From positions 1 through 64,000 of the IMG/VR virus record IMGVR_UViG_3300031746_000003: a stretch of DNA of 64,000 nt; one strand, given 5' to 3'. The notes under the pieces are model-generated. The model did not search any database. It had not been told where the DNA came from and saw only the letters and a list, made by a program, of their open reading frames with translations. Of this stretch, positions 12,726 through 39,945 are shown piece by piece. A program made the position numbers and the translations under genes. The stretch's first letter is position 1. Every line of letters starts with the position of its first letter. The DNA comes from a virus.

Positions 12726-12755
12726 CACTTATGCCGCACAACCCGGTAAGCTTGC
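12726..12755 (-). promoter_or_regulatory. phage-specific bipartite promoter, copy 1
   Basis: GCAA GCTTACCGGGTTGTG CGGC ATAA GTG upstream of dnaB. Confidence 0.65.
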
Positions 12756-12820
12756 AAAAGGGGGGACGCACCCTGCCCTACCGCTTGCAAAGCTGTCAAC
12801 AAAATATCGATGTGCACAAT

Positions 12821-12854
12821 AGCTTGGGGAGCCAGCTGCCTAACTCCCCAAGCT
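12821..12854. repeat. perfect 11-bp inverted repeat (terminator or processing hairpin)
   Basis: AGCTTGGGGAG-N12-CTCCCCAAGCT just after the stop of 12861..13178. Confidence 0.6.
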
Positions 12855-12860
12855 GTAGGG

Positions 12861-13178
12861 CTACACGGATGGAGCTTCACCTAGGTGCTCTGCTAGACCG
12901 CTGGTGTCTAGGTCGAGGCCCGTCTTGTTGGTTCCTGTGGCCCCGTCACCTAGGTGCATCTTTGCTAGGTCTCTCTCCATGGAGTCCTTCAGCACCTGAA
13001 GGTACTGCATGGTCTCCTGCGACCAGACCTGCGCCTCTCCTTTAGTCCAGCCGTGGGTATAGCCCGTCTTGGAGCTCACGAAACCAGCTACAGCTTTCAG
13101 TTGAAGCGTAGTGCCCATGAAGTCCACTTCTAGGCTACCGATGGCTAGGCCATCAAACTTAGGAGTTCCCAGTATCAT
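12861..13178 (-). CDS. hypothetical protein
   Basis: Coupled ORF (ATGA overlap) in the operon. Confidence 0.6.
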   Translation of the reverse strand: MILGTPKFDGLAIGSLEVDFMGTTLQLKAVAGFVSSKTGYTHGWTKGEAQVWSQETMQYLQVLKDSMERDLAKMHLGDGATGTNKTGLDLDTSGLAEHLGEAPSV

Positions 13179-13465
13179 ATGTCGCCCGCATCGGGTGCTA
13201 GCAGCTTCATACCCGCGTTAGTGAGTTCTCTAGCTTTGTTAAAAGCCATTACGCCAGCTTGGTGAACTGTGTCGCTGCTCTGCGCGCACTGCAGCGTGAC
13301 TGTCGTAGAGCACTTCAGTTCACCGTAGGCCAGTGACCTACCAACCACAGAGCTCACGGTAGCTAGCACCGGGCAGTCAGCTGCTATCAAGCTGAGTGGG
13401 TCGTCTGCGTACCACTCATCATGCTGTACCGATTTAGCGTCCTCTATAGTCCTAGTTGTCTTCAT
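13175..13465 (-). CDS. hypothetical protein
   Basis: Coupled ORF (ATGA overlap) in the operon. Confidence 0.6.
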   Translation of the reverse strand: MKTTRTIEDAKSVQHDEWYADDPLSLIAADCPVLATVSSVVGRSLAYGELKCSTTVTLQCAQSSDTVHQAGVMAFNKARELTNAGMKLLAPDAGDI

Positions 13466-13887
13466 GGTATCTCGATCTTCGAGGGTCTGTGAAACTTGTT
13501 GGTAGTCTTAGTGAAGTGCTCAAGAGACTCTGCTGGTATGTCCTTCTTAGCAATAGCCGCCCGCACCCTGGTCTTATCCAAGTTGTAAACTCGTTGTGTG
13601 CTAACAGTGCCCCCGACTGATAGGAATTTGTCATTACCTAGCAGGTCATATAGAGCTTGTGCGTCGTACGCGACGGTCGTCTGGAACAGTTCGAATGACC
13701 CGCAAGACACCCCCAGTGCTTTGGTGGCCTTCTCAGCAGCTTCTAGTAGGTCGTTGTACTCGTTGGCTAGCGCGCTAAATTCCTCGAACACGCTGCTGTG
13801 CTTCTGCTGAAAGTCTCTCAGGCGAGTGGCAGCCTCCTCAAAGTGAGCCACCTCCTTCAGGTCTTCCACGTTTACTTTCTTAGCCAT
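13462..13887 (-). CDS. hypothetical coiled-coil protein, possibly Gam/gp157-like
   Basis: N-terminal helix then YNLDKTRVRAAI; GGAG RBS. Confidence 0.5.
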   Translation of the reverse strand: MAKKVNVEDLKEVAHFEEAATRLRDFQQKHSSVFEEFSALANEYNDLLEAAEKATKALGVSCGSFELFQTTVAYDAQALYDLLGNDKFLSVGGTVSTQRVYNLDKTRVRAAIAKKDIPAESLEHFTKTTNKFHRPSKIEIP

Positions 13888-14713
13888 TGGGGTCTCCTAG
13901 AACATCAGACTTGTTGACGTCACGCTCACTGGGGATGATCCCCAGGGCTTCTTGCATGTACTTGTCGTACACGTTGGCTGCTAATCGCAGGTCTTCTAGA
14001 AATAGGTCTAGTGGGTTGTCGGGTCTTTTATCGGCCCACATTCTGAGTGCGTAAGCTGGGTGCAGTGTTGGCAGCACCAGGTACCCAACAGTGTTCTGCT
14101 CTGACGGCAGGGTAAGTACACCTTTTACTTTCCTAGCCCACACCTGCTTCTTGTCAGTACGTGAGGGCAGGTACCAAGATCCAGGGATGTCTAGCTGTCG
14201 TGTCTTACCCCGCTCTGACGTTATCGATATGCTCTTGCCCATGACCGCGCTAGTAGCCTCTGCTCCTAGGGTCACTATGAGGATGGGGTCTACCAGATAG
14301 ATCTCCTCCAGTAACCTAGGCCTACAGGCTGCTATCTGAGGTGGTGATGGTGTCCTGTCACGTATCATGGGGAGAGCTACACCCCTGCGATCTTTTCGGT
14401 ACATTGGCGCACCAGCGCCATCAACTGCGTGCTCACAAGATCTACAAGCAACAGTGTACGTGAAGTAAGTAGTGGGTAGACCTAGCTTACCTATAGTGTT
14501 TCTGAGAAGTGCTCCAGCCTTGTCACTGAATGGTCCCTCAGCTGCGTCATCTTCTTCTACTGGTCCATCCCCGATGAACATGATGCCGCGTCGGTCACCC
14601 TGCCCAAAGATGAGTGGCCCCTCCACGTCTTGCCTACGAACCCCCAAGTCGCAGGCTGTGCAGCTCTCCCACTCACCACGTAGCTCCCCTAGAGACTTGC
14701 GTATGTCAACCAT
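13880..14713 (-). CDS. family 4 uracil-DNA glycosylase-like protein
   Basis: CTACDL Fe-S ligands, GDGP, GPF, ACRP, TLG, LHPAY. Confidence 0.8.
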   Translation of the reverse strand: MVDIRKSLGELRGEWESCTACDLGVRRQDVEGPLIFGQGDRRGIMFIGDGPVEEDDAAEGPFSDKAGALLRNTIGKLGLPTTYFTYTVACRSCEHAVDGAGAPMYRKDRRGVALPMIRDRTPSPPQIAACRPRLLEEIYLVDPILIVTLGAEATSAVMGKSISITSERGKTRQLDIPGSWYLPSRTDKKQVWARKVKGVLTLPSEQNTVGYLVLPTLHPAYALRMWADKRPDNPLDLFLEDLRLAANVYDKYMQEALGIIPSERDVNKSDVLGDPNG

Positions 14714-14734
14714 GTACTAGTGGCCTCCCACCAA

Positions 14735-16501
14735 CTACGGGAATATCTGAGTCGGTTGATTCTGAGCTTTCCATTTACTTATTCCTGGGTGTCCTAGGTT
14801 GTCATAATCAAGAGGACCACCTTCTTCTACAGGCCAATCCCGTAGTGCAGTCTTCAGTTTCTTACACATGCCTATCAGTGGTCCGATGTTGTCTTCGTAG
14901 AACACCACCACTGGTAACTTCTCAACTACCCCTACTCTTGTGGGCCTACCAAGAAGTTGCTGTAGACTATTCCTGCTAGAGAACGGTTCACATACGAGCA
15001 CGGTATCTAGCTCTGGCCAGTCCATTCCTTCTTTGCCGTACTTGGTGATGGCGAAGATGACCTCACGGTTCTTGAGAAACCAAGTTCGCTTGTCTACAGG
15101 TACAGCATGGATCATGAAGCCCCCAGTACTAGGCTTGTCTGTTAGCTCCCTGATGTACTTCTTTTGACGCCTAGCTAGTTCCCTAGCTATCTTATCCGCT
15201 ACTTCACACTGTTTTAGCGTCTGGTTAAGTGTATCAAGTCTGTCCCGCATCTCTTGCACCTTCATGGGGTGCATACCGACTATCTTTAGCTGGCTGTCTA
15301 ACCCAGCTACCTGTAGCCCAATCCTCTTCACCTTGGTAGGCGGGAGTACCACAGGGTTTAACGTCTCGCCAACGTCCTGTGGTGTAGGTATCGGTATATC
15401 AGAGTACAGCTGAACACAGTTGGGGTCAGCCCACAGCGCCGCCAGATTTACTGTCTCATCCACAGAGTCGGAGAGCACCAACACTTTCCTGCCGGACGCT
15501 CGGGCAGCTATGACGTCAGCCAGGATTATGTCTAGTCGCTGTCTCCATTGACCGAAGTAGCCAGCCAACATTGCCCTGTGCTCTTTACCATTCTTGTCCC
15601 TAACCCTGGCTCTTGGGTTCGTCTCGTCTACGGCTAGGCCAGTCCACTTGAAATAGATCTTGGGCTTCAGTGTCTGCGTTAGATCTTTGTAGAGCACCTT
15701 GCCTATGTGGAAGTCATGGATGATGTGTAGACCATCTGCTCTGATGGGGGTGGCTGTCAGCCCGTAACGACTACCGTAGAAGATGTCAGCACTCTTGGCG
15801 AAGGTAGGTGCTGAGATGTGGTGCGCCTCATCCCAGATGATGATACCGAACCATCTACGTACTTCTTCTGGTAGCGTGTCTGCTTGAATAGCTAGTGTCT
15901 GATATGTGGCTAGGACAAGAGGTTTTTTCCAATCGAATTGGTCCGCTTGTATCAGCCCCAAGTCTTCTCTAGCAATTCCTAGTAGCTCTACTGCCTGATC
16001 TGCCCATTGGCTAAGCAGCTGTGTGTTGTCCAGTACCACTAGCGCAGGTACCTGAGCCCTAGCGATTAGCTCCAGGGCAACTACAGTCTTACCCTTACCA
16101 CAGGCTAACTGCAGCACCCCACCAGGCTCACGCTGTAGGGCACTCAGCGATTTGGCCTGGACGTTGTCCCCCGTGGGGGTGAGCTGTCTCACCCCCTGGG
16201 TCTCCTTCCATAGATGGTCTAGCTTGATTTTGCTGTTGAAGGTTACTGCTGTGTAGCTAGTAGGCCTGCAATCGACAACGTCGAATGGTAGTTCTCCAAC
16301 ACCCCAGAAGGCTCTAGGTACCAGTAGATGGTGCTCCATCTCTTTCCACAGGTAGAGCATGCGGCTCTTAGTAGGAGAGTAGGCATCTACGAAGCTGAAC
16401 GTGAGGGCAGCTTTTGTGCCCTCCACGTTCACGTAGCTTTTCGGTACCCACAAGTAGTTGTCTATGTATCCCTTGGTGGGCTGCCGTTTTAGTAGCTTCA
16501 T
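14735..16501 (-). CDS. superfamily 2 DEAH helicase (UvsW/XPB-like)
   Basis: CGKGKT, DEAHH, GLTATP, EGMD, QLLGRPTR. Confidence 0.9.
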   Translation of the reverse strand: MKLLKRQPTKGYIDNYLWVPKSYVNVEGTKAALTFSFVDAYSPTKSRMLYLWKEMEHHLLVPRAFWGVGELPFDVVDCRPTSYTAVTFNSKIKLDHLWKETQGVRQLTPTGDNVQAKSLSALQREPGGVLQLACGKGKTVVALELIARAQVPALVVLDNTQLLSQWADQAVELLGIAREDLGLIQADQFDWKKPLVLATYQTLAIQADTLPEEVRRWFGIIIWDEAHHISAPTFAKSADIFYGSRYGLTATPIRADGLHIIHDFHIGKVLYKDLTQTLKPKIYFKWTGLAVDETNPRARVRDKNGKEHRAMLAGYFGQWRQRLDIILADVIAARASGRKVLVLSDSVDETVNLAALWADPNCVQLYSDIPIPTPQDVGETLNPVVLPPTKVKRIGLQVAGLDSQLKIVGMHPMKVQEMRDRLDTLNQTLKQCEVADKIARELARRQKKYIRELTDKPSTGGFMIHAVPVDKRTWFLKNREVIFAITKYGKEGMDWPELDTVLVCEPFSSRNSLQQLLGRPTRVGVVEKLPVVVFYEDNIGPLIGMCKKLKTALRDWPVEEGGPLDYDNLGHPGISKWKAQNQPTQIFP

Positions 16502-17127
16502 GTTACCGGTGTACGTGGTTTAGTGAATGTGACGTGGTCGAATGAGTTGGCCACGGTATGCCCAGCTGATTTCCCCATAGCTCTGATTATCTCAAAGCCA
16601 AGCCTCTTCCACCACGGTACATCTTCTAGCACCGGTTCTGGTACTGCTAGGTAAGAAAGCATCTGCATGCCGGGCTGCTGATGACTGACCGGCACAGTTG
16701 GTGGTCCATAGTAAGCTATATGCGGGGGAGCCGTGAGTGGCGCGTATTGCCATGGTTGGTATTGCGGCGGCTGCTGCTGCACATACTGCGGTTGGTACTG
16801 CTGTGGCTGCGGTGGTGCGAAAGGGCGGGGTGGTTGAAGCTGTACACCACCTGCCATAGCTGGAGTAACAGTTGGCCGAACAAGCGCTTGGCTAGGGATA
16901 AACTGTGGCTGGTATTGTTGAGGCGGCTGCTGTTGCTGCACCTGCTGTTGCGGTGGTTTATTCTTTTCTAGGTTGCTGGCACATGTCCTTGGGGCGCACT
17001 GTGCATACCAGCTACACTTCTCCCTCAGTCTACTATTGTCCTTGGGGTTCACGTAGGCCGGGTCATACCCTCCTTTGCACTCCAGAGCTGTGGGTGACCA
17101 TTGTAGACCGAAGCATTGTGGCGTCAT
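16498..17127 (-). CDS. hypothetical protein with N-terminal Cys cluster and Gln/Pro-rich linker
   Basis: CFG..C..C..C..C then QQPPQQYQP repeats; AAGGAG RBS; first gene after promoter copy 2. Confidence 0.65.
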   Translation of the reverse strand: MTPQCFGLQWSPTALECKGGYDPAYVNPKDNSRLREKCSWYAQCAPRTCASNLEKNKPPQQQVQQQQPPQQYQPQFIPSQALVRPTVTPAMAGGVQLQPPRPFAPPQPQQYQPQYVQQQPPQYQPWQYAPLTAPPHIAYYGPPTVPVSHQQPGMQMLSYLAVPEPVLEDVPWWKRLGFEIIRAMGKSAGHTVANSFDHVTFTKPRTPVT

Positions 17128-17161
17128 CTTTGCGATCTCCTTGGCTATTTGAGCCTCAATT

Positions 17162-17191
17162 CCCTTATCACCGTTTATTGTCTAATCTTGC
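17162..17191 (-). promoter_or_regulatory. phage-specific bipartite promoter, copy 2
   Basis: GCAA GATTAGACAATAAAC GGTG ATAA GGG heading the helicase/UDG operon. Confidence 0.7.
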
Positions 17192-17193
17192 AG

Positions 17194-17231: not shown

Positions 17232-17696
17232 ATGGAGAAGCTCAGCGGACTGATATTGGACTTCTACGACGATAAGAACCGTGAGATAGCTCTCCCTCTG
17301 GAGCGCCTATCAGATCTTACAAAAGAAGCGCACGCTCTTACGGCTGAGGAGCACGCTAGGCTTCCTGACGATCTCTACGCGTTAGTCCTCATGGACGGAG
17401 ACGTCACACTTCGGAAGTTTGCCTGTGTAGACCCCGGTAATACGGCGGTCTCTATAGAGTACTTCTTGAAGACAGCACATAAGCTGCCGGTAGAAGCACA
17501 GAAGGTAGCTGCTAGGAACCTGATTACCGCCTGTGGCTGGTACGGCATAACTCCAGCAGCTGAGTTAGAGAAAATCGCCTTGCCCACTATTACTGGTGCT
17601 CTTAACCTCGCTCAAAATGTTCTTACAGCTAAGAACGTTGCGGGTGAAGTCCGCAGTGGTTTTCAGAAGGCTAAGAGCGGGGTTATCCAGTCATGA
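17232..17696 (+). CDS. head-associated protein with DUF6582-like domain and KxA motifs
   Basis: Start MEKLSG after GGAGG; LTAEEHARLPDDLYAL...KFACVD; ELEKIA. Confidence 0.65.
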   Translation: MEKLSGLILDFYDDKNREIALPLERLSDLTKEAHALTAEEHARLPDDLYALVLMDGDVTLRKFACVDPGNTAVSIEYFLKTAHKLPVEAQKVAARNLITACGWYGITPAAELEKIALPTITGALNLAQNVLTAKNVAGEVRSGFQKAKSGVIQS

Positions 17697-18601
17697 CTAC
17701 CAAACTTTCTGAGGCATCTGGTACAGACCTAATGCCTTTGAGTGGCCCAGCAGATAGATCTGTAGGTAAGGAGAAAGCAACTGTGCAGAAGTCCGCCTCT
17801 GGTACTGGTAATGAACTACCGCCTGGCGTGGCTAGCGCAGTAGCTGGGGAACAGCCACAGCGGTTACCGCAGGCTTCTAAGATGCATCCACACGTGGACG
17901 TATCTACACAAGAGCCGCCAAGGGTGATAGCTAAGCAGGCTCAGCGCTATGCTCTACCGTCACAGAACAAGTACCCCATAGACAACTATGAGCAAGTTAA
18001 GATGGCCAACTTCTACTTCGAAGAGTGGAGTAAGAGGATGGAGCCTGAGACTCGACGTGAGTACTGTGCCAACCTGGTGAAGAGAGCCTCTGAACTTGCC
18101 TTCGAAGTTACCAGTGATATTGCCAAGTACGGTTCTGCTTCTTACGCAGAGCCGTCTGAGTTTCAGACAGCTATAGACGGTCGCAGAAGTGTTCTGTCAG
18201 ACGACGCTGCTCGTGAGGTACTCAGCAAGTTAGCCGAGCTACGCCCGACTATGCCTGCAGAGGCTTTCGCTATTGCTCTGAGCGAGTTCGATAAGCTATC
18301 GGGGCTAGAGCAGTTCTATGATCAGTACATACCTGACCCGTACTACTCGACATACGGTGTTAAGACAGCTGCTGACGAGGACATGTCGGTTATCGTCGGT
18401 AACGACTACGTCAGCTCAAAGACACTCAAAGATTTTGCTAAGACTCGCTACCAGATGCTGAAGAAGACCTTCGGAGACGATCTGGCTGACGAGTTCCGTA
18501 AAGACCCAGTAGCTATTTTTAGTAGTCTTCCGTTAGACCAGAAGAAGATGGTTATGCGGATGGCTAATGAGAACGCTCCTAGGGATGAAGCGTCAGCTTA
18601 G
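17693..18601 (+). CDS. head-associated protein with DUF6582-like domain
   Basis: YALPSQNKYPIDNYEQVKMA; several KxA motifs. Confidence 0.65.
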   Translation: MTTKLSEASGTDLMPLSGPADRSVGKEKATVQKSASGTGNELPPGVASAVAGEQPQRLPQASKMHPHVDVSTQEPPRVIAKQAQRYALPSQNKYPIDNYEQVKMANFYFEEWSKRMEPETRREYCANLVKRASELAFEVTSDIAKYGSASYAEPSEFQTAIDGRRSVLSDDAAREVLSKLAELRPTMPAEAFAIALSEFDKLSGLEQFYDQYIPDPYYSTYGVKTAADEDMSVIVGNDYVSSKTLKDFAKTRYQMLKKTFGDDLADEFRKDPVAIFSSLPLDQKKMVMRMANENAPRDEASA

Positions 18602-18603
18602 CC

Positions 18604-19416
18604 ATGGATGAGCGTACGGAGATCGAAGCTAACCTCGACTTCGAAGGCCATTTCTTAGATGCGCTGAAGCGCATAGGTGTAAAGCCTAGTCCTAAAGCTC
18701 GGCCGTCTTACGACGAGTCCGACGAGTACACAGAGACGATAGACACCACGCTACCTGATGAAAAGAAGGTGGCAGAGGTACTACCCACACCTATCAATCT
18801 TTTTCAGCACCCAGATGCCCATCCAGTAGTTTTAGATCTGGCCTTGCTTCGTAAGTACGGGCCAGAGTGGATGACCTGGGAAGCTGAGACGTTGGTCTGG
18901 CGGATACCACAGGACTTTAGGACGGCTACGGTGAGCGATCTAAATCTATCTAAGATCATGGCCGTTAAGACCATGCACTTCGTAGATACCTTTTGGAAGA
19001 AGTGGGAAGTTTTTGTGTGGTGCGCTATGCCACTGAACAACTTATTTCCTGACTTCAACCATATGCAGGTACCAACTGCAGCTCAGTGCACAGTCGCTGT
19101 AGACATAGCTAACAACATACGTACCGACGTTGAGTGGAGCGACGAGCTCAAGGCGTATCTAGTTACGGTATTCCAGCATGATGACATCTACTATCCGGTA
19201 GACCCTATTGACTTTTTGACTGTGCCCTCTTTAGGCGTACCCGTTGACACCGCAGAGATAGCTACCAAGTGGTCGAAGGTCAGAGCTGCTAAGAGTGCCC
19301 CATCTGGTAGAACTGTGGTGGATGAGCAGCTGCGTCGGTGCCTCACTATAAAAAACTACGTGGACGAGGCTAGGGGTAGGCTGCACAGCCAGTTAAGGTT
19401 TATGCCTAATGTCTAG
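18604..19416 (+). CDS. hypothetical protein in the head module
   Basis: 270 aa ORF coupled within the operon. Confidence 0.65.
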   Translation: MDERTEIEANLDFEGHFLDALKRIGVKPSPKARPSYDESDEYTETIDTTLPDEKKVAEVLPTPINLFQHPDAHPVVLDLALLRKYGPEWMTWEAETLVWRIPQDFRTATVSDLNLSKIMAVKTMHFVDTFWKKWEVFVWCAMPLNNLFPDFNHMQVPTAAQCTVAVDIANNIRTDVEWSDELKAYLVTVFQHDDIYYPVDPIDFLTVPSLGVPVDTAEIATKWSKVRAAKSAPSGRTVVDEQLRRCLTIKNYVDEARGRLHSQLRFMPNV

Positions 19417-20236
19417 GTTGCACTACCAGATGGCTGGGTTTAACGACGAACTGTTAAAGCTAGCTGGAAGATCACCTAAAGCTATGAGTAACTTACTAGC
19501 TGGCACTGGTAAGTTTCTAAAGAGACAGGTACACAGTGTTACTGGCTGGACACCACAAGGTTTCCTGAACCCAGCTGGGGCAAGAGAACTTGGTGCGGGG
19601 GATATCGACAGTTCTCTGCAGGCGGTAAGTGCCGCTCGTAAGAAGCTACAGGCGGCTAGGACTATGCAACCTGGTATGTTAGACCAGTTGATAGGTAACA
19701 CTACGGCTGACGTTCGACGGAAGGCTAAAAGCAAAGCTACAGAAGAGCTAGCCCAGCACAAGAAGGGGTTAGAGCTATCTCATAAAGCCACTAGTATGGG
19801 GCTTACTAGTATCCCAGGGTACCTTAAGTCCCTGGCTACTAATGGCGTTGGAGACACGATAGCTACTGGGGCGCGACAGCAGTGGCACACTAGTGGCCCA
19901 GTCGGTAAAGGCCTTATGTTCGGATTACCAGCTGCCGGTGTAGCTAGTGCGATTGCCAAGAAGCCAGAAGAGGGGCACACTAGACTTGGTGATACTGCGC
20001 TAGCAGCTTCTATGGCACCAATGGGCCCTATACCCTTTGGTGGGCAGATAGCTATGGGGTTGGGCGCTGACAAGTTGTTCAAGCGTAAGCCCAAGGCGCA
20101 GCAGGTTAGGACGCTACTTCCTGAGTACACGCCACCAGCTACGTCTGAAGCCATCTCTCCTGGAGTGGAGCGGTCTGTAAGCCACTCTGCTGCAGGTATG
20201 CCACCGGGTGACATGCTAGGAGGATCTCCAGGATGA
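19409..20236 (+). CDS. putative internal virion protein (N-terminal FxDELxKxA, basic, Gly-zipper C-terminus)
   Basis: GFNDELLKLAG; GLMFGLPAAGVASA. Confidence 0.55.
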   Translation: MSRLHYQMAGFNDELLKLAGRSPKAMSNLLAGTGKFLKRQVHSVTGWTPQGFLNPAGARELGAGDIDSSLQAVSAARKKLQAARTMQPGMLDQLIGNTTADVRRKAKSKATEELAQHKKGLELSHKATSMGLTSIPGYLKSLATNGVGDTIATGARQQWHTSGPVGKGLMFGLPAAGVASAIAKKPEEGHTRLGDTALAASMAPMGPIPFGGQIAMGLGADKLFKRKPKAQQVRTLLPEYTPPATSEAISPGVERSVSHSAAGMPPGDMLGGSPG

Positions 20237-20772
20237 CTCTTGAACAGCTAGTTGTAGAGACGCGCAAGGAGTTTCCTGACTTCGTTGTTAAGGCGAAGGT
20301 GAATAGCAAGTTGATGCTGCTCATCAACCGCTTCCTGCTCATCCTAACGTTCGGTGGGATGAAGACGTTCATGACTACGTACACCACTACGATGGGTAAC
20401 ACTGTGTACGTACCTAGCCAGTGGGCTCTGTGGACTGAGCAGTCTAAGGTGCGCATCTTGAGGCATGAGCGTATTCATATGCGCCAGGCTAAGAAGTACA
20501 CGCGACTTCTGTTTTCTTTTTTGTACCTGTTCGTGCCACTGCCAATAGGCTACGCGTACTTCCGAGCTAAGTTTGAGATGGAGGCCTACGAGGAGACCAT
20601 CAGAGCCGCATTCGAACAGGGTGGTATTAAGGCAGTAGAGGACTCGGAATTTAGAGCTCACATCATTAACCAGTTTACAGGCCCAGCGTACTTGTGGATG
20701 ATGCCAGATCGTGTGAAGATGTTCTCTTGGTACACCAAGACGGTGGCTAAGCTAGAGAGTGAAACCACATGA
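20233..20772 (+). CDS. zincin-like metallopeptidase
   Basis: HERIH (HExxH) plus downstream FEMEAY; hydrophobic segments. Confidence 0.7.
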   Translation: MTLEQLVVETRKEFPDFVVKAKVNSKLMLLINRFLLILTFGGMKTFMTTYTTTMGNTVYVPSQWALWTEQSKVRILRHERIHMRQAKKYTRLLFSFLYLFVPLPIGYAYFRAKFEMEAYEETIRAAFEQGGIKAVEDSEFRAHIINQFTGPAYLWMMPDRVKMFSWYTKTVAKLESETT

Positions 20773-22697
20773 GCTTTGTAGGCGGCGGGTTTGGCATAGG
20801 TACTTCCGGCGGCTCTGGAGCATCGCGCTTCTCCAGTACGCGTGGGCGTATCAATGGGTCACCGGTACAGGGTGTTAACTACCCTAGTCCGTTCTTCGAT
20901 GTCGCCCACACGTACCTGCCCGTCACGTTCAAGCAGATGTTCCGGTGGTGCCGGTACTACTTCTTAACGAATCCACTCATCAACGCCACGGTCTTTAAGC
21001 TCTCTGAGTACCCCATCACGGAGCTGGTTATTGACCATGAGCGTGCTGACGTAGCTGCCAGGTGGACTGAGTACATGCAGGACCACCTGAGGTACCGCGC
21101 ATTCCAGGTAGAGGTTGGTCTCGACTACCACTGTTATGGTAACGCCTTCGTATCCATAGCCTTCCCCTTCAAGAAGTACTTGAAGTGTTTGTCTTGTGGT
21201 AGCTCTGAGGAAGCGCAGAAAACTAGGGCACGTTGGACCTTCACCAACAACGCCTTCAGGTACAACTGCCCAAAGTGTGGGACCACCACAGAGGCTGAGG
21301 CGAAGGACGAGTACTTCAAGAACGCTAGTGGCATTCGGCTACTACGTTGGAACGCTGAGTATGTGGAGATCACGTACAATGAGGTCAGCGGTGAGTACAT
21401 CTACTTCTACACGATCCCTCCCACGCTACGTAATGACGTAGTGATAGGTAAGAAGGACGTAGTAGAGAGCACCCCGCAGGTGTTCCTACAAGCTATGCGT
21501 GAGGGTAAGGGAGTTGTCTTCTCGAAGGACAACTTCTTCCACCTCAAGCGCCCGACACTTGCACAGCAAGATCGTGGGTGGGGTATCCCACTGATTCTCC
21601 CGGTACTTAAAGACACTTTCTACCTGCAGCTAATGAAGAAGGCTCAGGAGGCGATTCTTCTTGAACATATTGTCCCTCTACGCGTGCTGTTCCCACAAGC
21701 TGGGTCTGGGTCCAGTGACCCGTACACAACTATCAATCTCGGGGAGTGGCGTGACCAAGTAGCTTCTGAGATTGGCCGTTGGCGTATGGACCAGAACTAC
21801 ATACCCATCATGCCTTTGCCTCTTGGTAACCAAACCATTGGTGGCGACGGTAAGGCCCTGCTGCTGACGCAAGAGATACAGCAGTGGAGTGAGCAGATCA
21901 TGGTGGGCATGGGAGTACCACGTGAGTTCCTCATTGGTGGTATGAGCTACGCTGGTACCAACGTCTCCATGCGTATGTTGGAGAACGCGTTCTTCGGCTA
22001 CATCCTGCGCCACAAGCAGATGGCTAAGTGGGTCATGAAGATGGTGTCTGGCTACATGGAATGGCCGGAAGCCAACATCCGCTTCAAGCCGTTCAAGATG
22101 GCTGACGACATTCAGCGCAAGGCTCTGATGCTGCAGCTGAACCAGGCACAGAAGATCAGTGACACTACCCTGCTAGCCGACTCTGACCTTAAGCAGGATG
22201 AAGAGAACGGCATCATGCTCCGTGAGACGGACATGAGAGTTGCTGCCACTAAGCAGCAGCAGTTGGCCATGGCTCAGATTCAGGGTGAGGTCCAGGTCAT
22301 CATGGCCAAGGCGCAGGTGAAAGCGCAGCAGGTAGCCATGGAAGCTCAACAGGGTGCTGTTGCTCCTGGTGAACCTGGTGAGGGCTTTGGCCAACAGGTA
22401 CAGAGCCCTATGAACGCCGGGCAGAGTTTGCAGCAGGGTGGGCAGCAGCAAGCTGGTTTGGACATTAACCAGATGGCACAGAGCTACTCTAAGCAGATTC
22501 AATCAATGCCTCCAGGTGACCAAGAGATGGCGATGCAGAACATCACTACTCAGAGCCCAGAGCTCGGGCAGCTAGTTAGGCAGCTGGTAGCACAAGATCG
22601 AAAGAGCGGGCAGCAGGGTACTCCACCAGCACCTGGTGTTGACATGCGCCCTATGCCTGAGCAGCGTGCTCCACGGCGTGCTGCTGGTATGGTGTAG
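20769..22697 (+). CDS. portal protein with Zn-ribbon insertion
   Basis: NPLINATV, DYHCYGNAFV, WGIPLI, IMVGMGVPREFL portal pattern; CLSC/CPKC insert; Gln-rich tail. Confidence 0.8.
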   Translation: MSFVGGGFGIGTSGGSGASRFSSTRGRINGSPVQGVNYPSPFFDVAHTYLPVTFKQMFRWCRYYFLTNPLINATVFKLSEYPITELVIDHERADVAARWTEYMQDHLRYRAFQVEVGLDYHCYGNAFVSIAFPFKKYLKCLSCGSSEEAQKTRARWTFTNNAFRYNCPKCGTTTEAEAKDEYFKNASGIRLLRWNAEYVEITYNEVSGEYIYFYTIPPTLRNDVVIGKKDVVESTPQVFLQAMREGKGVVFSKDNFFHLKRPTLAQQDRGWGIPLILPVLKDTFYLQLMKKAQEAILLEHIVPLRVLFPQAGSGSSDPYTTINLGEWRDQVASEIGRWRMDQNYIPIMPLPLGNQTIGGDGKALLLTQEIQQWSEQIMVGMGVPREFLIGGMSYAGTNVSMRMLENAFFGYILRHKQMAKWVMKMVSGYMEWPEANIRFKPFKMADDIQRKALMLQLNQAQKISDTTLLADSDLKQDEENGIMLRETDMRVAATKQQQLAMAQIQGEVQVIMAKAQVKAQQVAMEAQQGAVAPGEPGEGFGQQVQSPMNAGQSLQQGGQQQAGLDINQMAQSYSKQIQSMPPGDQEMAMQNITTQSPELGQLVRQLVAQDRKSGQQGTPPAPGVDMRPMPEQRAPRRAAGMV

Positions 22698-22699
22698 CC

Positions 22700-24028
22700 A
22701 TGTCTATAAGTATTGTACAGTTTCGTAGTTTTGCTATGGATTTGGAAAAGACTGCTCTTTCTCGCTGGCAAAAGGCATTGTCTGAGGGGCTCGTGAAGCC
22801 GCGAGAATTGGGGATAAGAAGAGCTCTACCAGAGGCTGTACCTACGGCTGTAAAGGCGCTTCAGAACCCTGAACTTGTGGCAGCCAGAGAGAACTTCAGG
22901 AAGATGGCTCCTGTAACCGGTACAGTAGATGTGAAGGGGTTTGATCCTATGCGTAGGATAGACCTTACTAGGAAGTTGAACGAACATAAATATCATGCGT
23001 TGATGACCAACCCAGGGGCAGTTGGTGGTGTGCCTAGTAATCAAGTATCCGCTATAGACCCTGGACCATCAGCGCGTATGCTTGGGTTGCCAGAGGCCGG
23101 TACGCTGCCTTTAAGTCGCGTTGGGGACAAACCAACAGCTGCGGTGCTGCTGAACCCACAAAGACTACAAAGATTTTTGTCACAACACCTATACCCAGGA
23201 CGCGGTGCATTGGCTGTAGCTGGTAAGAAAAACGTGATAAAGGCAGAGCCAACTATTAGGAATGCAGTAGCTAGACATGAATTGGGTGAGGCACAAGGAT
23301 TTATCAGGGGCGAGAATATGCCAACTTCTAGTCATGTCGGTAGAGGTCCTATAGAACAGGAGTTGCAGGCTGTTGCTGGCGACCCAGCGGCGTATAGCGT
23401 AATGAAGGATCTACGCACAAAGAAACAACCACGCCAGTTTGCCAGTAACTCAGCAAATCTTCAGGACGCTAGCTACTTCAATAAACTTACGCAATTTGGT
23501 GTCACACCTGATTCACCTCCAGTTATTGGCGGTTCAGGGCACATTATGTCTAAGGGTAAACAAGTACCTGTAGAGTACGGTAGACAGCATAAAGCTATGA
23601 GGGAACACCTGGTGAACACTGCTGGGAGAGATCCCGCTACGATACAGCAGACTTTATCAAGATGGTCGCCAACTCCCAGTCCTTACGTAGCGACATCACC
23701 GACTTATAAAAAGAACAGAGCGGCTATCACTAAAGCTACGGCACTTTACAGCAATGCTGGCGCAGATGCTGGGCGTAGGTCATTGAGCGATGCTGGGTTT
23801 GGTGAGAGTTTCCCTGCGGCTACAAAAAAATACAAAGCTACTATTCCAGAGGACATCAGTAACTGGCCGCGTGCAAGAAAAAAACTTTTGTATAAGCAGC
23901 TGGACCGCCAATCTGACGATTTCGAAGCAGCGGCGAACGTACTAGATAGAAACGCGACGGCAATAGCACGGGAAAAGAACCCTGGAGATCCTAGGTTTGC
24001 TAATAGAGTTGTTGCTAGTAGGGCTTGA
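22700..24028 (+). CDS. putative internal virion/ejected protein (N-terminal KxA leader, basic cargo)
   Basis: SFAMDLEKTAL leader; RHELGE motif; A-richer codon use than its neighbours. Confidence 0.55.
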   Translation: MSISIVQFRSFAMDLEKTALSRWQKALSEGLVKPRELGIRRALPEAVPTAVKALQNPELVAARENFRKMAPVTGTVDVKGFDPMRRIDLTRKLNEHKYHALMTNPGAVGGVPSNQVSAIDPGPSARMLGLPEAGTLPLSRVGDKPTAAVLLNPQRLQRFLSQHLYPGRGALAVAGKKNVIKAEPTIRNAVARHELGEAQGFIRGENMPTSSHVGRGPIEQELQAVAGDPAAYSVMKDLRTKKQPRQFASNSANLQDASYFNKLTQFGVTPDSPPVIGGSGHIMSKGKQVPVEYGRQHKAMREHLVNTAGRDPATIQQTLSRWSPTPSPYVATSPTYKKNRAAITKATALYSNAGADAGRRSLSDAGFGESFPAATKKYKATIPEDISNWPRARKKLLYKQLDRQSDDFEAAANVLDRNATAIAREKNPGDPRFANRVVASRA

Positions 24029-24063
24029 TAGCTAGAGAAGATTGGCAGTCTCTTCTCTGGGCA

Positions 24064-24627: not shown

Positions 24628-24646
24628 AGGGTGGATTCCCTCATCT

Positions 24647-24676
24647 CTATTATCCCCAAAAACAGCCTAAAATTGA
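24647..24676 (-). promoter_or_regulatory. phage-specific bipartite promoter, copy 3
   Basis: TCAA TTTTAGGCTGTTTTT GGGG ATAA TAG upstream of the methyltransferase. Confidence 0.7.
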
Positions 24677-24679
24677 GCT

Positions 24680-24705
24680 AAAGAAAAGGGTGGCCTAAGC
24701 CACCC
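24680..24705 (-). terminator. intrinsic terminator after the vWA gene
   Basis: GGGTGGC-TTAG-GCCACCC-TTTTCTTT. Confidence 0.8.
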
Positions 24706-24712
24706 CTCCTCT

Positions 24713-26020
24713 CTAGTCCACTTGGTTATACGGCTCTCTGAGCTTGAGGTCGTCACTGACAACTACCAAGTGTCCCCAGTCAGCTGGCTTCCTACCCCAA
24801 CCTGACGGGACTACACACCAGACAACCTCTGTCCCTACTGGTGGAGTAGCTGGGGCATCTCCATCTCCGTCAGTTAGGTAGATGATAACGTCTGGCTTTG
24901 GTCTCAGCTTTAAGGCAGCTGCTATAGCTGGCTTGAAGCTAGTGCCCCCTCTGCCATACAGCTTCAGGTCCGGCACCTCATGAACACTGACTCTTCTTGG
25001 CTCACAAGCTACCTCGGCGTCAGCATCTAACAGCCAGGCGCGTTCTACTCCTAGCTGTTTCAAGATGGCTATGATCTCTGAATTAACAGAGTTGATCTGA
25101 ACATCTCCCATTGACCCTGACGTGTCACGTATCAGGCATATCTCAATCTTGCGGTCTATCATCCCAGGCCTGAGGATGCCTGTGAAGTAAGACCTCTTAG
25201 CTGGGCGACGGAAAGAGTAATCGCGTGTACCAGCAATCGCACGACCACTGGTACGTCTAACTACCCTACCTAGCTTAGTACGCCACGGGATGATGGAAGG
25301 CTGCTCTTCGAAGTCCACCAGGTCTTCTAGACCAGCTGGCATGTACCCACGGTTACTGGCAGTTAGCGTAGACGTGGCTTTCTTAACGTCCTTAGCTGTC
25401 TCCTTCTTGATACGAAGGACATCTGCCGGAGCACGCCCATGCTCTTTAGCTTCTTGGGATGTTCCCTCACCAGCGTGTGGGTTACCAGCACAGCTACCAC
25501 ACTGCCCGTTGGTTACCTGTGGTTTACCGTGGCCCTCACCATCCTTCGTATCGCCATCCTTAGCAGCACCAGCGGTCCCCTCACCTTTCTTACTCTTCTT
25601 TGCTCTGGTCTCTAGCAGATCGTAGTACTGCTCCAGAGAAAGATTAGTAGGGAAGCCGTATTGTTCTGGGTATGCTCCTCCAGCAGGCAGTTGCCAACCA
25701 GCATTTCTGAGGTCCTGGTTTATGGCTATGTCCCCAGCCAGATTAGCCTGGTAGTGGTCTGGTAGTGCATCCAACCTGGCTACGTCGCGCAGAATATGCA
25801 TGCACTCATGCACGAGTAACCCAGCAGCTTCTTCTGCATTGTGCTTCGTGTACCACTCAGGGTCTACGGTCAACACCATGCTTTTGGAAACTCCTAAGGT
25901 ACCTATAGGAGCAAGTACAGGCACTAACCCATAAAGGGTTTTGGCGAAGTACGGTGCGCGAGATACTACTAGAGCCCTGGCTGTTGCCAGGGCCTCCAGG
26001 CATTGCTTTTCTTTATCCAT
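24713..26020 (-). CDS. DUF2201-like metallopeptidase-vWA protein
   Basis: HECMH, DIAINQ, MIDAS DTSGSM, GGTSF, LTDGDG. Confidence 0.85.
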   Translation of the reverse strand: MDKEKQCLEALATARALVVSRAPYFAKTLYGLVPVLAPIGTLGVSKSMVLTVDPEWYTKHNAEEAAGLLVHECMHILRDVARLDALPDHYQANLAGDIAINQDLRNAGWQLPAGGAYPEQYGFPTNLSLEQYYDLLETRAKKSKKGEGTAGAAKDGDTKDGEGHGKPQVTNGQCGSCAGNPHAGEGTSQEAKEHGRAPADVLRIKKETAKDVKKATSTLTASNRGYMPAGLEDLVDFEEQPSIIPWRTKLGRVVRRTSGRAIAGTRDYSFRRPAKRSYFTGILRPGMIDRKIEICLIRDTSGSMGDVQINSVNSEIIAILKQLGVERAWLLDADAEVACEPRRVSVHEVPDLKLYGRGGTSFKPAIAAALKLRPKPDVIIYLTDGDGDAPATPPVGTEVVWCVVPSGWGRKPADWGHLVVVSDDLKLREPYNQVD

Positions 26021-28381: not shown

Positions 28382-28398
28382 GTTGTCCCTTTGTTTTG

Positions 28399-37109: not shown

Positions 37110-37117
37110 GAGAATCA

Positions 37118-39175
37118 ATGGACCTCTTCCTCAGTTCTGAGCAGGTTTTCGAGAAGGTTGCTGGCGAGACTACTCTTCCAGACGACCCGAATGTTTGGCC
37201 ACGGGAAATCCTGCAGGAGCTGTACAAGCAGGTCCCGTACGTAGCTGACTTCCACCCGCATGTGTCTATGGACAAGGTGGACGCGGAGAAGGGCTACGGC
37301 ATGGGGCACATTGAGGTGGCCAACCAGACTGAGATTCAGTCGGGTGCTGACCCCGTGCAGGTAGCTGCAGCTGGTGTGCGCACTGTGCGCATTCCCATCA
37401 TCGTGAAGAACAAGAAGATGAGCCCGCTGGACATCTTGATCACGGACTCCTCCAAGGTAGTTCCGTTGACAGAGTCTAGGCTACGCCAGGCCATCTTCCG
37501 TCCCCAGGCTTTTGATATCACCAGCAAGACACCGGGTGATCAGAGCATGATTGGACAGCTCTACCCGCCTTTCCGACAGAACATGGGTATGGGCGGTGGT
37601 GGCGGTGGTCTTTCTATGAACGCTGGTATGGGCAAAGAAGGCGCCGAGAAGTGCGCTGAGTGCGGTAAGACGGACTGCTCTTGCCCAGCCATGAAGAAGA
37701 AGGCCTCGGTACTCAACGCCATTCTTCCAACCATCAACACCACAGACTACCTTGCGTTTGTTGACGCGCTCAATGACCCATACACGCGTACAGCCTTTGT
37801 AAAGAACGCAGCTTCGACACAAGCAGCGTTGACTACGTTACTTAACCACGACCCAACTAGTGTTAAGCACGCTAGTGTAGGTAGCTTGGTGCACCCAACA
37901 GTCACTCAGATATCGAGAGATGTAGACGGGTACAAGGTCAAGTCAGCTAGCCACCACTACTGGGCTCCTACAGAGGAGATTGTAGATCGCGGAGAAGTCG
38001 TACGTCGTTATGGTACGAAGGTAGCTCTTGCTGCAGATATGTCTGGTGCTGCCACTCTTACCGAGGGTGCCACGGCTATGTCTGAAGAAGCACCTTCTGA
38101 GGAGCCCCGTCCGATAGAGGCTTCTGGTATGTACAAGGTGCGTGACGAGCAGGGTCGCGAGTTGCTTGGTGCTGTCATTACAAACCTGATTGATACTGAT
38201 GGTACTGAGCTCCCACTAGCGCTATTTACTAATGGTTCTCAGTCAGCTGTGCAGGCTGACATCGTGGGTATACCAGCTGGTGGCACACCAGATCTACCTA
38301 GTGACCTACAGGTACACGGTGATGGTGCGTTCTACTCGGTAGAGGACGGGGTACTTAAGGCTACTATCCCGATGACCTTCGGAAGTGGCTACACCTCTAG
38401 CCCTGATGAGCCAGACGTGCATGTAGGTTCCACCTTTGATGGGCGTGAGGTTGAGGTATCTCAGCAGCCGAACATTCAGATGGTTATGGGCACTGAGGAG
38501 GGCAAGATGCTAGTTCCAGCTCACTGGAAGTGGCTGCCATTGACGTCCTCAGAGTCAGTAAAGCTAACCACTACGGAAGGTGACGAAGAGAAGAGTGCAG
38601 CTGCCCGTGTTACCTACGCCTCTGTGGAGGTTCGTTGTGGTGGGCAGGACAGCTTCTCGGTCTCTGGGCCAGCTGTTGAGAAGCTAGCATCAGAAGACAG
38701 GTCATTCCTCAGCTTGGACGACACCATGTTCCTACTCTCTGGGCTTGGTGTAGACCAGGCTTACGGGGTGAAGAAGCTAGCGCAGTCGATGGGTGCTGGT
38801 GCACCAGTGATGGTGCGTATTGGGCGCAGCATCAAGATGGCTAGCGACCGAGATGAGGATGCTCTGGCGGCAGCTGCTGAGAAGCTGGCGTCTATACCTA
38901 GCCTGAAGTGTTACCTCTTCAAGGAGGCAGCCAGCATCCCAGACCCCACTGCGGTAGACACTATTCTTTCTCTGGGTTTCATTAACCCGGAGAACATGAT
39001 GACCTTCATGGGGTACCTCCCGGTCATAGACGACGCTCAGTCCAAGATCTGTGAGCTCCTGCTGGCTTCTCGTCTAGGACTACAGGACGTGCCTACCTCC
39101 GCTCTGGAGAAGGCTGTCCGGTCCACGGAAGAGATACTAGAGGGCCTTAAGATCTTGGCCTTCCAGGGTAACTAG
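37118..39175 (+). CDS. large head-associated protein rich in KxA motifs
   Basis: AGGAG RBS; FEKVAG, VKHAS, VKSAS, EKSAA, EKLAS, IKMAS, FKEAA. Confidence 0.7.
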   Translation: MDLFLSSEQVFEKVAGETTLPDDPNVWPREILQELYKQVPYVADFHPHVSMDKVDAEKGYGMGHIEVANQTEIQSGADPVQVAAAGVRTVRIPIIVKNKKMSPLDILITDSSKVVPLTESRLRQAIFRPQAFDITSKTPGDQSMIGQLYPPFRQNMGMGGGGGGLSMNAGMGKEGAEKCAECGKTDCSCPAMKKKASVLNAILPTINTTDYLAFVDALNDPYTRTAFVKNAASTQAALTTLLNHDPTSVKHASVGSLVHPTVTQISRDVDGYKVKSASHHYWAPTEEIVDRGEVVRRYGTKVALAADMSGAATLTEGATAMSEEAPSEEPRPIEASGMYKVRDEQGRELLGAVITNLIDTDGTELPLALFTNGSQSAVQADIVGIPAGGTPDLPSDLQVHGDGAFYSVEDGVLKATIPMTFGSGYTSSPDEPDVHVGSTFDGREVEVSQQPNIQMVMGTEEGKMLVPAHWKWLPLTSSESVKLTTTEGDEEKSAAARVTYASVEVRCGGQDSFSVSGPAVEKLASEDRSFLSLDDTMFLLSGLGVDQAYGVKKLAQSMGAGAPVMVRIGRSIKMASDRDEDALAAAAEKLASIPSLKCYLFKEAASIPDPTAVDTILSLGFINPENMMTFMGYLPVIDDAQSKICELLLASRLGLQDVPTSALEKAVRSTEEILEGLKILAFQGN

Positions 39176-39209
39176 TAGCTAAGAGAGTTTGCAGTCCTCT
39201 CCCCACGTA

Positions 39210-39380
39210 CTACCAGGAGTTGGTAGTACGCCAGCCACGTGGCTTGCCCCGAGGTGCAGGAGGCTCAGGCCTTTCGACCTGGCACCTCACGTCCACTCGG
39301 ACTGCCACGGGGGGCGGGGGGTAGTCATCCGAGAAAGGTTCTCGGGCGACTATCTCCAAGGAGGTGTGTACCGAGTTCAT
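39210..39380 (-). CDS. small Pro-rich hypothetical protein
   Basis: ATGA overlap with the upstream gene; GC-rich islet. Confidence 0.4.
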   Translation of the reverse strand: MNSVHTSLEIVAREPFSDDYPPPPVAVRVDVRCQVERPEPPAPRGKPRGWRTTNSW

Positions 39381-39820
39381 CGGCACATCTCCTCGGATAC
39401 CCTGAGGTCCTCTTCCGAGAGCAGCCAGCACCCTAGGGCTGCCAGGTCCTCCTGGCGGTCCATCAAGGCAACGTGGTCGTCCTTTCCACCCACGCCCCCG
39501 CCCTCACCCCACAAGGCTTGCCCACCGTAGGGCGCCCCCTCGATGAGCTCGGAGATATCCTTCAGGACTGCATCCGGCAGTCCATGAAGAAGCTCCAAGG
39601 CCTTATCAAAGGCCTCGTCATCGTCGGGGTGGTAGCTACACCCATCCGGACAACCCACAAGGTGATCGGCAGCGAGCTCCACCGCCTGGAGGCGGTGTCC
39701 TTCCGGCTCACCGTAGCCACTAGACGCGAGGAACTCCAACATCGGCCTTGACCTCCAGTAGGCGCAGGACCTGAGCATCGTGACGACAGCCAGGGTCATG
39801 ATAACCCTGACTTTCGTCAT
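39377..39820 (-). CDS. hypothetical early protein
   Basis: AAGGAG before the ATG at 39820; downstream of promoter copy 5. Confidence 0.6.
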   Translation of the reverse strand: MTKVRVIMTLAVVTMLRSCAYWRSRPMLEFLASSGYGEPEGHRLQAVELAADHLVGCPDGCSYHPDDDEAFDKALELLHGLPDAVLKDISELIEGAPYGGQALWGEGGGVGGKDDHVALMDRQEDLAALGCWLLSEEDLRVSEEMCR

Positions 39821-39915
39821 TATGCTGTGGCTCCTTTCCAGTGCTTCGCACTTGGTTATCGTTACGTTGAGGGGCACAAATCCCTCGCCTTGTGCATTGA
39901 TGTTCGGCATCAATA

Positions 39916-39945
39916 CTATTATCCCTAAAAAGACTTGAAAATTGC
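39916..39945 (-). promoter_or_regulatory. phage-specific bipartite promoter, copy 5
   Basis: GCAA TTTTCAAGTCTTTTT AGGG ATAA TAG. Confidence 0.7.

Follow-up and report, generated by a model that had tools for sequence, protein, structure and literature searches.

The window analysed here (64,000 bp, bases 1-64000 of the linear, 120,344-bp IMG/VR virus record IMGVR_UViG_3300031746_000003, hereafter G000, whose completeness CheckV estimates at ~64%) contains five copies of a two-box DNA element, CAA followed at a fixed distance by ATAA, which recurs in the rest of the record and in related phages. This motif is very probably a bipartite -35/-10 promoter, and the phages that carry it encode both an RNA polymerase core and a SigB-like sigma factor, here called sigma-B. 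We infer that the motif drives the non-structural genes of a phage lineage of ~185 kb, namely replication genes, a unit encoding an ATPase and a von Willebrand factor A (vWA) protein, and small orphans. Its reader would be sigma-B, a phage-encoded group-3 factor, most likely working with the phage's own fused beta-beta' core, and by analogy with the cultured phage Arash both proteins are probably packaged in the virion and delivered by injection. To this explanation as a whole, from promoter and reader to core and virion delivery, we assign a probability of roughly 0.55.

The five intergenic minus-strand sites that the sequence-only reading had described are present in the window, each with CAA, 19 nt, ATAA, with G(G/T)(G/C) ahead of ATAA and with a G three bases behind it (Table 1). 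The exact pattern gave 5 matches against 0.08 expected and none of 100 shuffles reached 5, a figure that is inflated because the pattern had been fitted to those same sites. When the pattern fitted in the window was applied to the unseen part of the record (bases 64001-120344, 56 kb), three further exact copies appeared against 0.083 expected, a number reached in 0 of 1000 resamples; the motif also recurs in related phages, as described below. A blind scan of 261,861 dyads of G000 (3-mer, gap of 10-25, 4-mer), ranked by intergenic enrichment, placed CAA-19-ATAA first: 11 of its 18 copies were intergenic against 6.5% expected (p = 1.8e-9). GGATAAT (5/6 copies intergenic) and ATAATAG (7/12) were among the top intergenic words. 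The observation of a two-box repeat is thus confirmed. As the sequence-only reading had noted, GGGATAA copies inside genes have no CAA partner: GKSATAA, which is not enriched by itself (19 occurrences in the window, where 20.2 are expected), is paired with CAA only at the five intergenic copies.

A weight matrix trained on the eight exact sites (five inside the window and three beyond it) added three more, all scoring above the maximum of 13.6 obtained in five shuffles. The resulting 11 sites of G000 all lie on the minus strand, which accounts for 26,025 of the 113,721 coding bases of the record, and have identical spacing. In 11/11 cases the downstream gene is on the same strand, begins 1-60 nt away and has the site in the intergenic region ahead of it or at its 5' edge. 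The motif stands at 10 of 20 minus-strand unit heads and at none of 29 plus-strand heads (Fisher p = 2.2e-5), a count that is only descriptive because the matrix was trained on those same sites.

The identities of the downstream genes bear out the earlier claim that the motif stands only before non-structural genes. Among the operon labels proposed with that claim, those of DnaB, primase, DNA polymerase (PolA), helicase, uracil-DNA glycosylase (UDG) and vWA protein (a DUF2201 metallopeptidase) held, while the methyltransferase reached its family model only below the cut-off and the single-stranded DNA-binding protein and MoxR were not confirmed by name. A RecA-like gene in the replication unit and an ATPase (phrog_1297) in the vWA unit were identified in addition. 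The plus-strand blocks of G000 contain TerL, the portal protein and orthologues of Arash virion proteins, with the polymerase gene among them. They are regarded as structural on the strength of TerL and of orthologues of the Arash portal and structural proteins; searches of the plus-strand proteins against Pfam and PHROGs mostly gave no matches. The block at 17693-24028, which its portal gene marks by homology as structural, has no copy of the motif, and the matrix score at its head is -9.1.

The consensus in G000 is (G/T)CAA(G/T), 15 nt with a T-rich end, (G)GG(G/T)ATAA(G/T)nG, then n-A-(A/T)-T-G-A-G-G. With the first A of ATAA set at -11, CAA falls at -33 to -31 and the GGG triplet at -15 to -13, and the two boxes read TCAAG (-34 to -30) and GGGGATAA (-15 to -8). 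Exactly 7 nt past the -10 hexamer there is a pyrimidine-purine step, in most cases T followed by G, which is found at the expected distance in relatives as well; transcription would start at this purine. Both boxes and their spacing are kept while the spacer sequence is free, among the 11 sites as well as at related loci. A is present at -11 in 11/11 sites, and -7 is G in six and T in five.

The motif had been said to match neither the sigma-70 nor the sigma-54 consensus. For housekeeping sigma-70 this stands: a consensus scan of 12-30 kb called none of the four motif sites there and found 6 sigma-70-like sites against 12.7 expected, and the -35 hexamers, compared by eye, are xTGCAA or GCTCAA, not TTGACA. 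Sigma-54 GG/GC doublets were not visible in the site alignment, which was inspected by eye without a formal scan. The geometry, in contrast, is that of the sigma-70 family and fits promoters of its group-3 members (SigB, sigma-28) rather than those of housekeeping sigma-70.

Sigma-28 promoters read (-36)TCTAAAG(-30) and (-15)GCCGATAA(-8) (PMC12784957). The phage motif has the identical register, with GATAA at -12 to -8, AA at -32/-31 and a GC-rich triplet at -15 to -13 as an extended -10. When we compared site by site, GATAA was found in 7 of 11 sites; three had TATAA or CATAA, one had GATAA after GT, and GCC was replaced by GGG. The 15-nt spacing after a TAAA(G)-type -35 box was also found, but the box is KCAA in G000, with C in place of A at -33; in the complete relative G003 it is GAAA, ATAA or TAAA-like. 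Other differences are that T at -12 breaks the CGA core in Arash and that the motif serves replication genes and orphans, not flagellar genes. SigB promoters read GTTTAA-N15(+/-2)-GGGTAT (PMC9847131), and they share with the phage motif, which is xxKCAA-N15-GGG(G/T)AT in the same notation, two boxes, a -35 ending in AA, a spacer of ~15 nt and a -10 that opens with GGG followed by (T/G)AT. At N15 after CAA the phage sites have GGGTAT once (107765), GGGGAT four times and variants elsewhere; in the -35 box only the terminal AA and some T are common with GTTTAA. Unlike in SigB promoters, the phage -35 is KCAA rather than TTTAA and the -10 extends to ATAAG/T. For the Synechocystis factor SigF, the promoter elements TAGGC and GGTAA are given in excerpts of the literature.

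We then compared related phages. Polymerase orthologues of 50-60% identity were found in 13 IMG/VR loci, several of them on complete records of 185-190 kb. In the divergent region ahead of the polymerase gene, GCAA-N19-ATAA stands at the equivalent place in 9 of 12 related loci; the exceptions are two identical loci with GCAA-N19-AAAA and one (L015) whose -10 box has CAA at another spacing. After near-identical regions had been collapsed, 7 of 9 lineages had the motif, with differing spacers and GC contents of 0.54-0.63. A loosened pattern gave 13 matches in five complete relatives and 2 for the reversed control. G003 (186,879 bp) is collinear with G000 and has 12 matrix hits of at least 15 (11 minus, 1 plus), a level that one shuffle in 10 exceeded (15.0). 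Several of these hits are at orthologous junctions, and the G003 sites give the consensus (G)(C/A/T)AA(A/G)-N14-(C)GGGGATAAGA(G/A). Weaker hits in G003 precede plus-strand non-structural genes, one of them beside DNA ligase and a second sigma gene, which indicates that gene class, not strand, governs placement. The motif accompanies the phage polymerase across relatives, and the evidence supports a class of promoters peculiar to this phage lineage. No description of it was found in the literature searched.

By polymerase, the closest cultured relatives are the Vibrio phages D181, D148 and D69 and the Salmonella phage Arash, at ~30% identity. Of the GGTATAA copies in the first 100 kb of Arash, 24 are on the minus strand and one is on the plus strand; for TGGTATAA the counts are 15 and 0. 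The boxes lie 20-40 nt ahead of minus-strand non-structural genes, with the consensus tGGTATAAGTAAgGTGTAA, and ~11 further boxes are present at 100-150 kb. In D69, (T/C)TATAAG(T/A)A or a close variant such as TGTAAGTAA was seen in 7 of 15 gaps examined by eye, and the case for this phage rests on those gaps because counts over the whole segment show only a slight strand bias (TATAAG, 22 minus vs 11 plus). (T/G)ATAAG, with G at -7, is common to all three lineages, that is, the G000 group, Arash and D69. The word "promoter" occurs 0 times in the Arash paper.

The sequence-only reading took the motif for the recognition code of the phage's own RNA polymerase. Phage-specific reading is likely, but in bacterial-type enzymes -35 and -10 boxes are read by sigma, not by the core, and the 2150-aa protein in question is a catalytic core, which would thus need a sigma for such boxes; the reader is most likely a phage sigma. 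Sigma-B (247 aa, the same length as E. coli FliA) is encoded beyond the window and was present in 5/5 records searched. Its best full-length solved match is S. aureus SigB (8x6g_H), with which the family profile aligns from end to end (E = 4e-11); the profile also matches WhiG, FliA and SigF-type factors. Against E. coli FliA, E was 1e-3 for the single sequence and 3.2e-7 for the profile. In a fold search the structure model matched sigma factors with probability 1.00. Unlike SigB itself, sigma-B is phage-encoded, has only ~17-20% identity to sigmas of solved structure and occurs together with a phage core. The protein has the group-3 layout: regions 2, 3 and 4, a length within the ~240-260 aa of that group, and neither region 1.1 nor a non-conserved insert. 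It was recognised through region 3, which exceeds the Pfam cut-off; Pfam searches of G000 with the region 2 and r4_2 models returned no matches and that for r4 only 13.2 bits, and region 2 gives weak matches of 11-19 bits. A region-4-like helix-turn-helix is conserved in five orthologues, and in an alignment with SigA the tryptophan-pair region (YATWWIRQ in SigA) becomes THVxxRLxK. A related-locus search with sigma-B alone returned no relative, and orthologues were taken from record-search positions. Among 50,697 phage records we found five sigma-B homologues: four in the top four polymerase matches (Arash, D69, D181 and D148) and a fifth, weak one in a cyanophage.

Protein type and promoter type thus agree, sigma-B being SigB-like and the motif having a group-3 register, and we consider it likely that a phage sigma reads the motif. 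Region 4 of sigma-B would contact the CAA box and regions 2 and 3 the GGG/ATAA box. With which core it would do so is, in our estimate, an even bet between the phage core and other partners. The polymerase keeps NADFDGD invariant in 8/8 orthologues, and its beta' region can be aligned, clamp helices included, with beta' chains of solved structure. When sigma-B residues 1-170 were modelled with polymerase residues 1100-1500, the complex scored 0.39 against 0.00 for the best control, with run agreement of at least 76% of contacts and a partner pLDDT (predicted local distance difference test) of at least 71. Of 80 solved complexes, 58 passed the mark used, and of 110 mismatched pairs 2 did; both of these mismatches, but only 7 of the solved complexes, passed at <=0.60. 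The prediction weakly supports the pairing, and its pass may reflect likeness to solved structures, since sigma and beta' are a textbook pair.

Virion delivery is suggested by Arash. According to the mass spectrometry in the Arash report, beta is the most detected virion protein (3516 spectra), beta' (1210) and Gp10, the sigma-B homologue (467, 100% coverage), were also detected, and its authors suggest a role of the virion polymerase proteins in early transcription. If sigma and core were injected together in the same manner, the non-structural genes could be transcribed without a host holoenzyme.

Several points weigh against this explanation. Start sites and timing are predictions from geometry and sequence; among 24 runs matching window positions 19001-29000 there was no RNA run, all being DNA sediment metagenomes kept as contigs. 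The sigma-B model is of moderate confidence (pLDDT 74.9, built from 5 sequences). The -35 box is looser in G003 (GCAA, GAAA, ACAA, ATAA), and only ~3 of 13 Arash sites examined by eye have it at the correct distance, the -10 boxes in that phage being preceded by TG, like an extended -10. An alpha subunit gene was not found in 5/5 records, so the phage core would have to assemble without alpha or borrow that of the host. The Arash virion list comprises 116 proteins, including ribonucleotide reductases and ligases, and in the report its authors allow for carry-over of abundant infection proteins. As partners of sigma-B, phage core and host core both fit the evidence here.

The most serious alternative is that a host holoenzyme reads these early promoters, through a housekeeping sigma with a variant consensus or a host group-3 sigma, and that phage polymerase and sigma serve later genes from other, as yet unrecognised promoters. 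The -10 core agrees with TATAAT at 4-6 of 6 positions; it is TATAAT exactly at two of the additional sites (107765 and 108717) and GATAAT at three, so that host sigma-70 may recognise a subset of sites. The Arash box TGGTATAAG resembles an extended -10, and early regions read by the host typically have clusters of strong promoters before small orphans. TATACT-, TACAAT- or TAGAAT-like boxes also precede the polymerase gene in relatives, and the lineage may thus use more than one promoter class. Nevertheless, T at -7 is the base most needed by sigma-70, and in the large majority of G003 and Arash copies this position is G. The -35 box and the outcome of the housekeeping scan described above likewise speak against a host sigma-70, and one deviant core is kept across phages of very different hosts and GC content, in keeping with a phage reader inherited along with it. 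Near its tRNA genes Arash has canonical TTGACA-N17 promoters as a distinct set, its motif boxes lack the CGA core of sigma-28, and Salmonella is not known to have a SigB. We regard reading by a host holoenzyme as unlikely.

Sigma-B might instead redirect the host core, the phage beta-beta' serving another gene class through another factor. SPO1 gp28 and T4 gp55 are phage sigmas that redirect the host core, and every argument drawn from sigma applies equally to this possibility. In excerpts of the literature phage sigmas are described as tools for capturing the host core, and sigmas of this kind as the norm in large phages without a polymerase of their own; the missing alpha gene points the same way. 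On the other hand, sigma-B was found together with a phage core in every record seen, with the weak cyanophage match as the sole exception, and both proteins were detected together in Arash virions according to the report. The clamp-helix region of the phage beta' is kept, and the predicted pairing, with its caveats, favours the phage core weakly. Redirection of the host core seems to us quite improbable, and partnership with the phage core remains the version that we favour.

A second phage sigma, sigma-A, has textbook regions 2 and 4, an N-terminal helix-turn-helix and Pfam scores above the cut-offs for regions 2, 3 and 4; it is encoded in G003, where it adjoins DNA ligase, and in Arash. As a reader with either core it is very unlikely: G001, G002 and G005, three of the four complete relatives, gave no match to it at E <= 1 and still carry the motif, and this makes it a poor candidate. 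The G000 record itself ends short of the region expected to hold sigma-A. Its Arash homologue, Gp196, is missing between Gp194 and Gp197 in the virion table of the report. Sigma-A may control another gene class. That the motif is no promoter but some other repeated intergenic signal, a regulator site or an RNA element, is scarcely credible: four sites have a downstream stretch in common, but two boxes with fixed spacing and a free spacer, co-orientation with the downstream gene in 11/11 sites, one copy directly behind a terminator, a pyrimidine-purine step at the expected start distance in window and relatives, and downstream hairpins that are not significant all speak for a promoter.

The proposed system resembles several known ones in part. 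As in SPO1 (gp28, gp33/34) and T4 (gp55), a phage sigma would define a promoter and a gene class; those cascades have no phage core, whereas here sigma and core are co-inherited and, according to the Arash report, co-detected in virions. N4 early promoters are DNA hairpins, and the N4 enzyme that reads them is single-subunit, unlike the enzyme here; in the spacer of our motif no conserved inverted repeat was recognised in alignments judged by eye. With the N4 virion RNA polymerase, as described in excerpts (PMC13434306), the proposed system would share an injected polymerase and few conserved early promoters. Phages of the phiKZ and AR9 types (PMC13282480, PMC9209446) likewise have a multisubunit polymerase with its own promoter class and a virion enzyme for host-independent early transcription. 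Their beta and beta' are split and they have gp68 and gp226 instead of a sigma-70 homologue, unlike the fused core, sigma-70-family factor and -35/-10 promoter found here (PMC13282480). The AR9 non-virion polymerase reads the template strand (PMC9209446). A 2026 review describes phage multisubunit polymerases without sigma, alpha or omega homologues and with unrelated specificity subunits (PMC13282480); G000 and its relatives have inherited together a fused core of bacterial type, a sigma of the sigma-70 family and -35/-10 promoters to match. The motif would map the gene class under sigma control, a prediction testable in cultured Arash. A virion-borne holoenzyme, if real, would mean that a virion polymerase works with a true sigma factor, and it would add a third route to host-independent early transcription, beside the N4 and phiKZ types. 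More tentatively still, and with the odds somewhat against so broad a statement, the whole clade (the sediment phages, Arash, D69, D148 and D181) might package a beta-beta' core with a SigB-like sigma and, once these are injected, transcribe all non-structural genes host-independently from group-3-type promoters.

Table 1. Positions of the motif copies and associated features in G000 unless another phage is named; predicted starts and leader lengths follow from promoter geometry.
Feature	Position	Strand	Details
Copy 1	12726..12755	-	GCAAG-N16-GGCATAAGTG; predicted start A12721, 26 nt ahead of dnaB ATG 12695
Copy 2	17162..17191	-	-35 GCAAG (17191-17187), -10 GGTGATAAG (17172-17164); leave-one-out 25.5; predicted start G17157, 30 nt ahead of ATG 17127
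Copy 3	24647..24676	-	-35 TCAAT, T-rich spacer end, -10 GGGGATAAT; leave-one-out 32.8, top full score; predicted start G24642, 15 nt ahead of ATG 24627
Copy 4	28627..28656	-	-35 GCAAG, -10 GGGGATAAG; divergent from polymerase gene; predicted start G28622, 9-nt leader GGAGGCAAC, then ATG 28613
Copy 5	39916..39945	-	-35 GCAAT, -10 AGGGATAAT; leave-one-out 31.2; predicted start G39911, 1-nt leader, then ATG 39910
Exact match beyond window	69387-69415	-	fitted pattern
Exact match beyond window	84454-84482	-	fitted pattern
Exact match beyond window	107104-107132	-	fitted pattern
Matrix-added site	107728-107765	-	GGGTATAAT; score 32.8
Matrix-added site	108680-108717	-	GGTATAAT; score 26.5
Matrix-added site	84863-84900	-	GGGGATAAG; score 21.7
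Terminator-like hairpin with U tract	24676..24716	-	GGGGUGGCUUAGGCCACCC UUUUCUUU; closes ATPase-vWA unit, abuts -35 box of copy 3
Fused beta-beta' multisubunit RNA polymerase core, 2150 aa	28701..35153	+	Pfam Rpb2_6, Rpb2_3, Rpb1_1, Rpb1_2, Rpb1_5
Sigma-B, SigB-like, 247 aa	99906-100649 (= L003:15906-16649), outside window	+	Sigma70_r3 35.8 bits
Sigma-A, canonical second sigma, 397 aa	G003 15706-16899 (L018); Arash gp196, 120656-121693	+ (G003)	Sigma70_r2 40.7, r3 27.2, r4 53.5 bits
DnaB-like helicase	11313..12695	-	leads replication unit; gene-family search
Primase, replication unit	10315-11316	-	gene-family search
PolA, replication unit	7077-9020	-	gene-family search
RecA-like, replication unit	5299-6645	-	gene-family search
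Helicase-UDG unit including 209-aa orphan	12861-17127	-	behind copy 2
187-aa gene	24064-24627	-	behind copy 3; match to phrog_19090
ATPase-vWA unit: 45-aa open reading frame, two orphans, ATPase (phrog_1297), DUF2201 vWA/metallopeptidase	28613-24713	-	behind copy 4
Orphan gene	39377-39910	-	behind copy 5
Portal protein	20769..22697	+	tblastn vs Arash gp204 (portal) region, E = 6e-85

The copies are not of equal strength. Copy 1 (site 12754) has neither the T-rich spacer end nor TG at the predicted start and is the weakest, with a leave-one-out score of -1.9 where the other seven exact sites reach 14.9-33.2. It has no counterpart upstream of dnaB in G003, and at least one random exact match is to be expected in comparable sequence with a chance of ~8% (80/1000 resamples). 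We treat this weak copy as doubtful on account of its leave-one-out score and the missing G003 counterpart. Upstream of dnaB, G000 (window 12760-12800, minus) and G003 (~83150-83200) have in common GTTGACA, followed ~30 nt later by a C-run and TTT, and G003 reads TTGACA-N17-CAGTAT there; this element may be a separate, sigma-70-like promoter of the replication unit. Copy 2 has a weaker orthologous site in G003 (89272-89309), and copy 3 has a counterpart at the equivalent place behind the DUF2201 gene (96114-96151). The hairpin next to copy 3, with -25.1 kcal/mol and z = -5.32, folds better than any of 200 shuffles, although a simple terminator scan did not list it; because copy 3 stands directly behind this strong hairpin, the site is a terminator-promoter junction. 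At copy 5 the predicted start directly precedes ATG 39910, which would give a near-leaderless mRNA; the longest-open-reading-frame call starts earlier, at TTG 39913. The 187-aa gene behind copy 3 reaches the methyltransferase Pfam model with 20.4 bits, below the cut-off of 27, and the orphan behind copy 5 has no family match in Pfam or PHROGs.

Four predicted leaders (window 24642-24625 and G000 ~84447, 107727 and 108679, minus) open with a common GAGGGAATCC-like stretch, which may reflect a preference in the initial transcribed sequence or be a Shine-Dalgarno at the 5' terminus. Hairpins in leaders downstream of predicted starts were not significant (z = 0.38, 0.74 and -1.06). Leaders after D69 boxes, read by eye, also open with short inverted repeats, for example GGAGAATACTCTCC.

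No motif was found upstream of the polymerase gene, where the best matrix score is -5.8, or upstream of the sigma-B gene; both lie in structural-gene blocks. The sigma-B gene sits in a plus-strand block of large orphans, one of which (88787-90922) is orthologous to the Arash structural protein gp6. In the related loci L005-L017, boxes of TAnnnT type stand 10-25 nt before the polymerase ATG on the plus strand, GG(T/C)TATACT, GGGTACAAT or GGGTAGAAT, and the window has TAGGAT at 28680-28700 before its own polymerase gene; such boxes may form a second promoter class for structural and polymerase genes. The polymerase is one fused gene in G000; in Arash it is divided between gp206 and gp216 (130093-134670 and 139441-141261), which other genes separate, and the polymerase-matching stretch of D181 and D148 includes an annotated homing endonuclease.

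The heads of plus-strand structural units (19 in G000, 14 of them paired with G003) showed no common promoter motif by eye; a few GGTATAAC/G boxes were noted, all lacking a CAA partner. Plus-strand intergenic GGTATAA(C/G) without CAA occurs in or near late-looking blocks at 94174, 98377, 101890 and 108719 of G000 and at 22605, 89946 and 178260 of G003, and the same sigma may use these boxes as weak or activator-dependent promoters. CCTGTAG was considered as a second signal and rejected, as it is not enriched overall (20 against 15.8 expected in the window). Three copies lie within 80 nt (window 43611-43707, minus) between an HTH_17/MerR-like gene (43708-44418) and a small open reading frame, a cluster that may be an operator, and another lies just upstream of the polymerase gene (28673-28679). 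Finally, an 816-aa protein encoded in a structural block (window 54506-56956, plus) contains a ferritin-like or rubrerythrin domain at residues 54-171.

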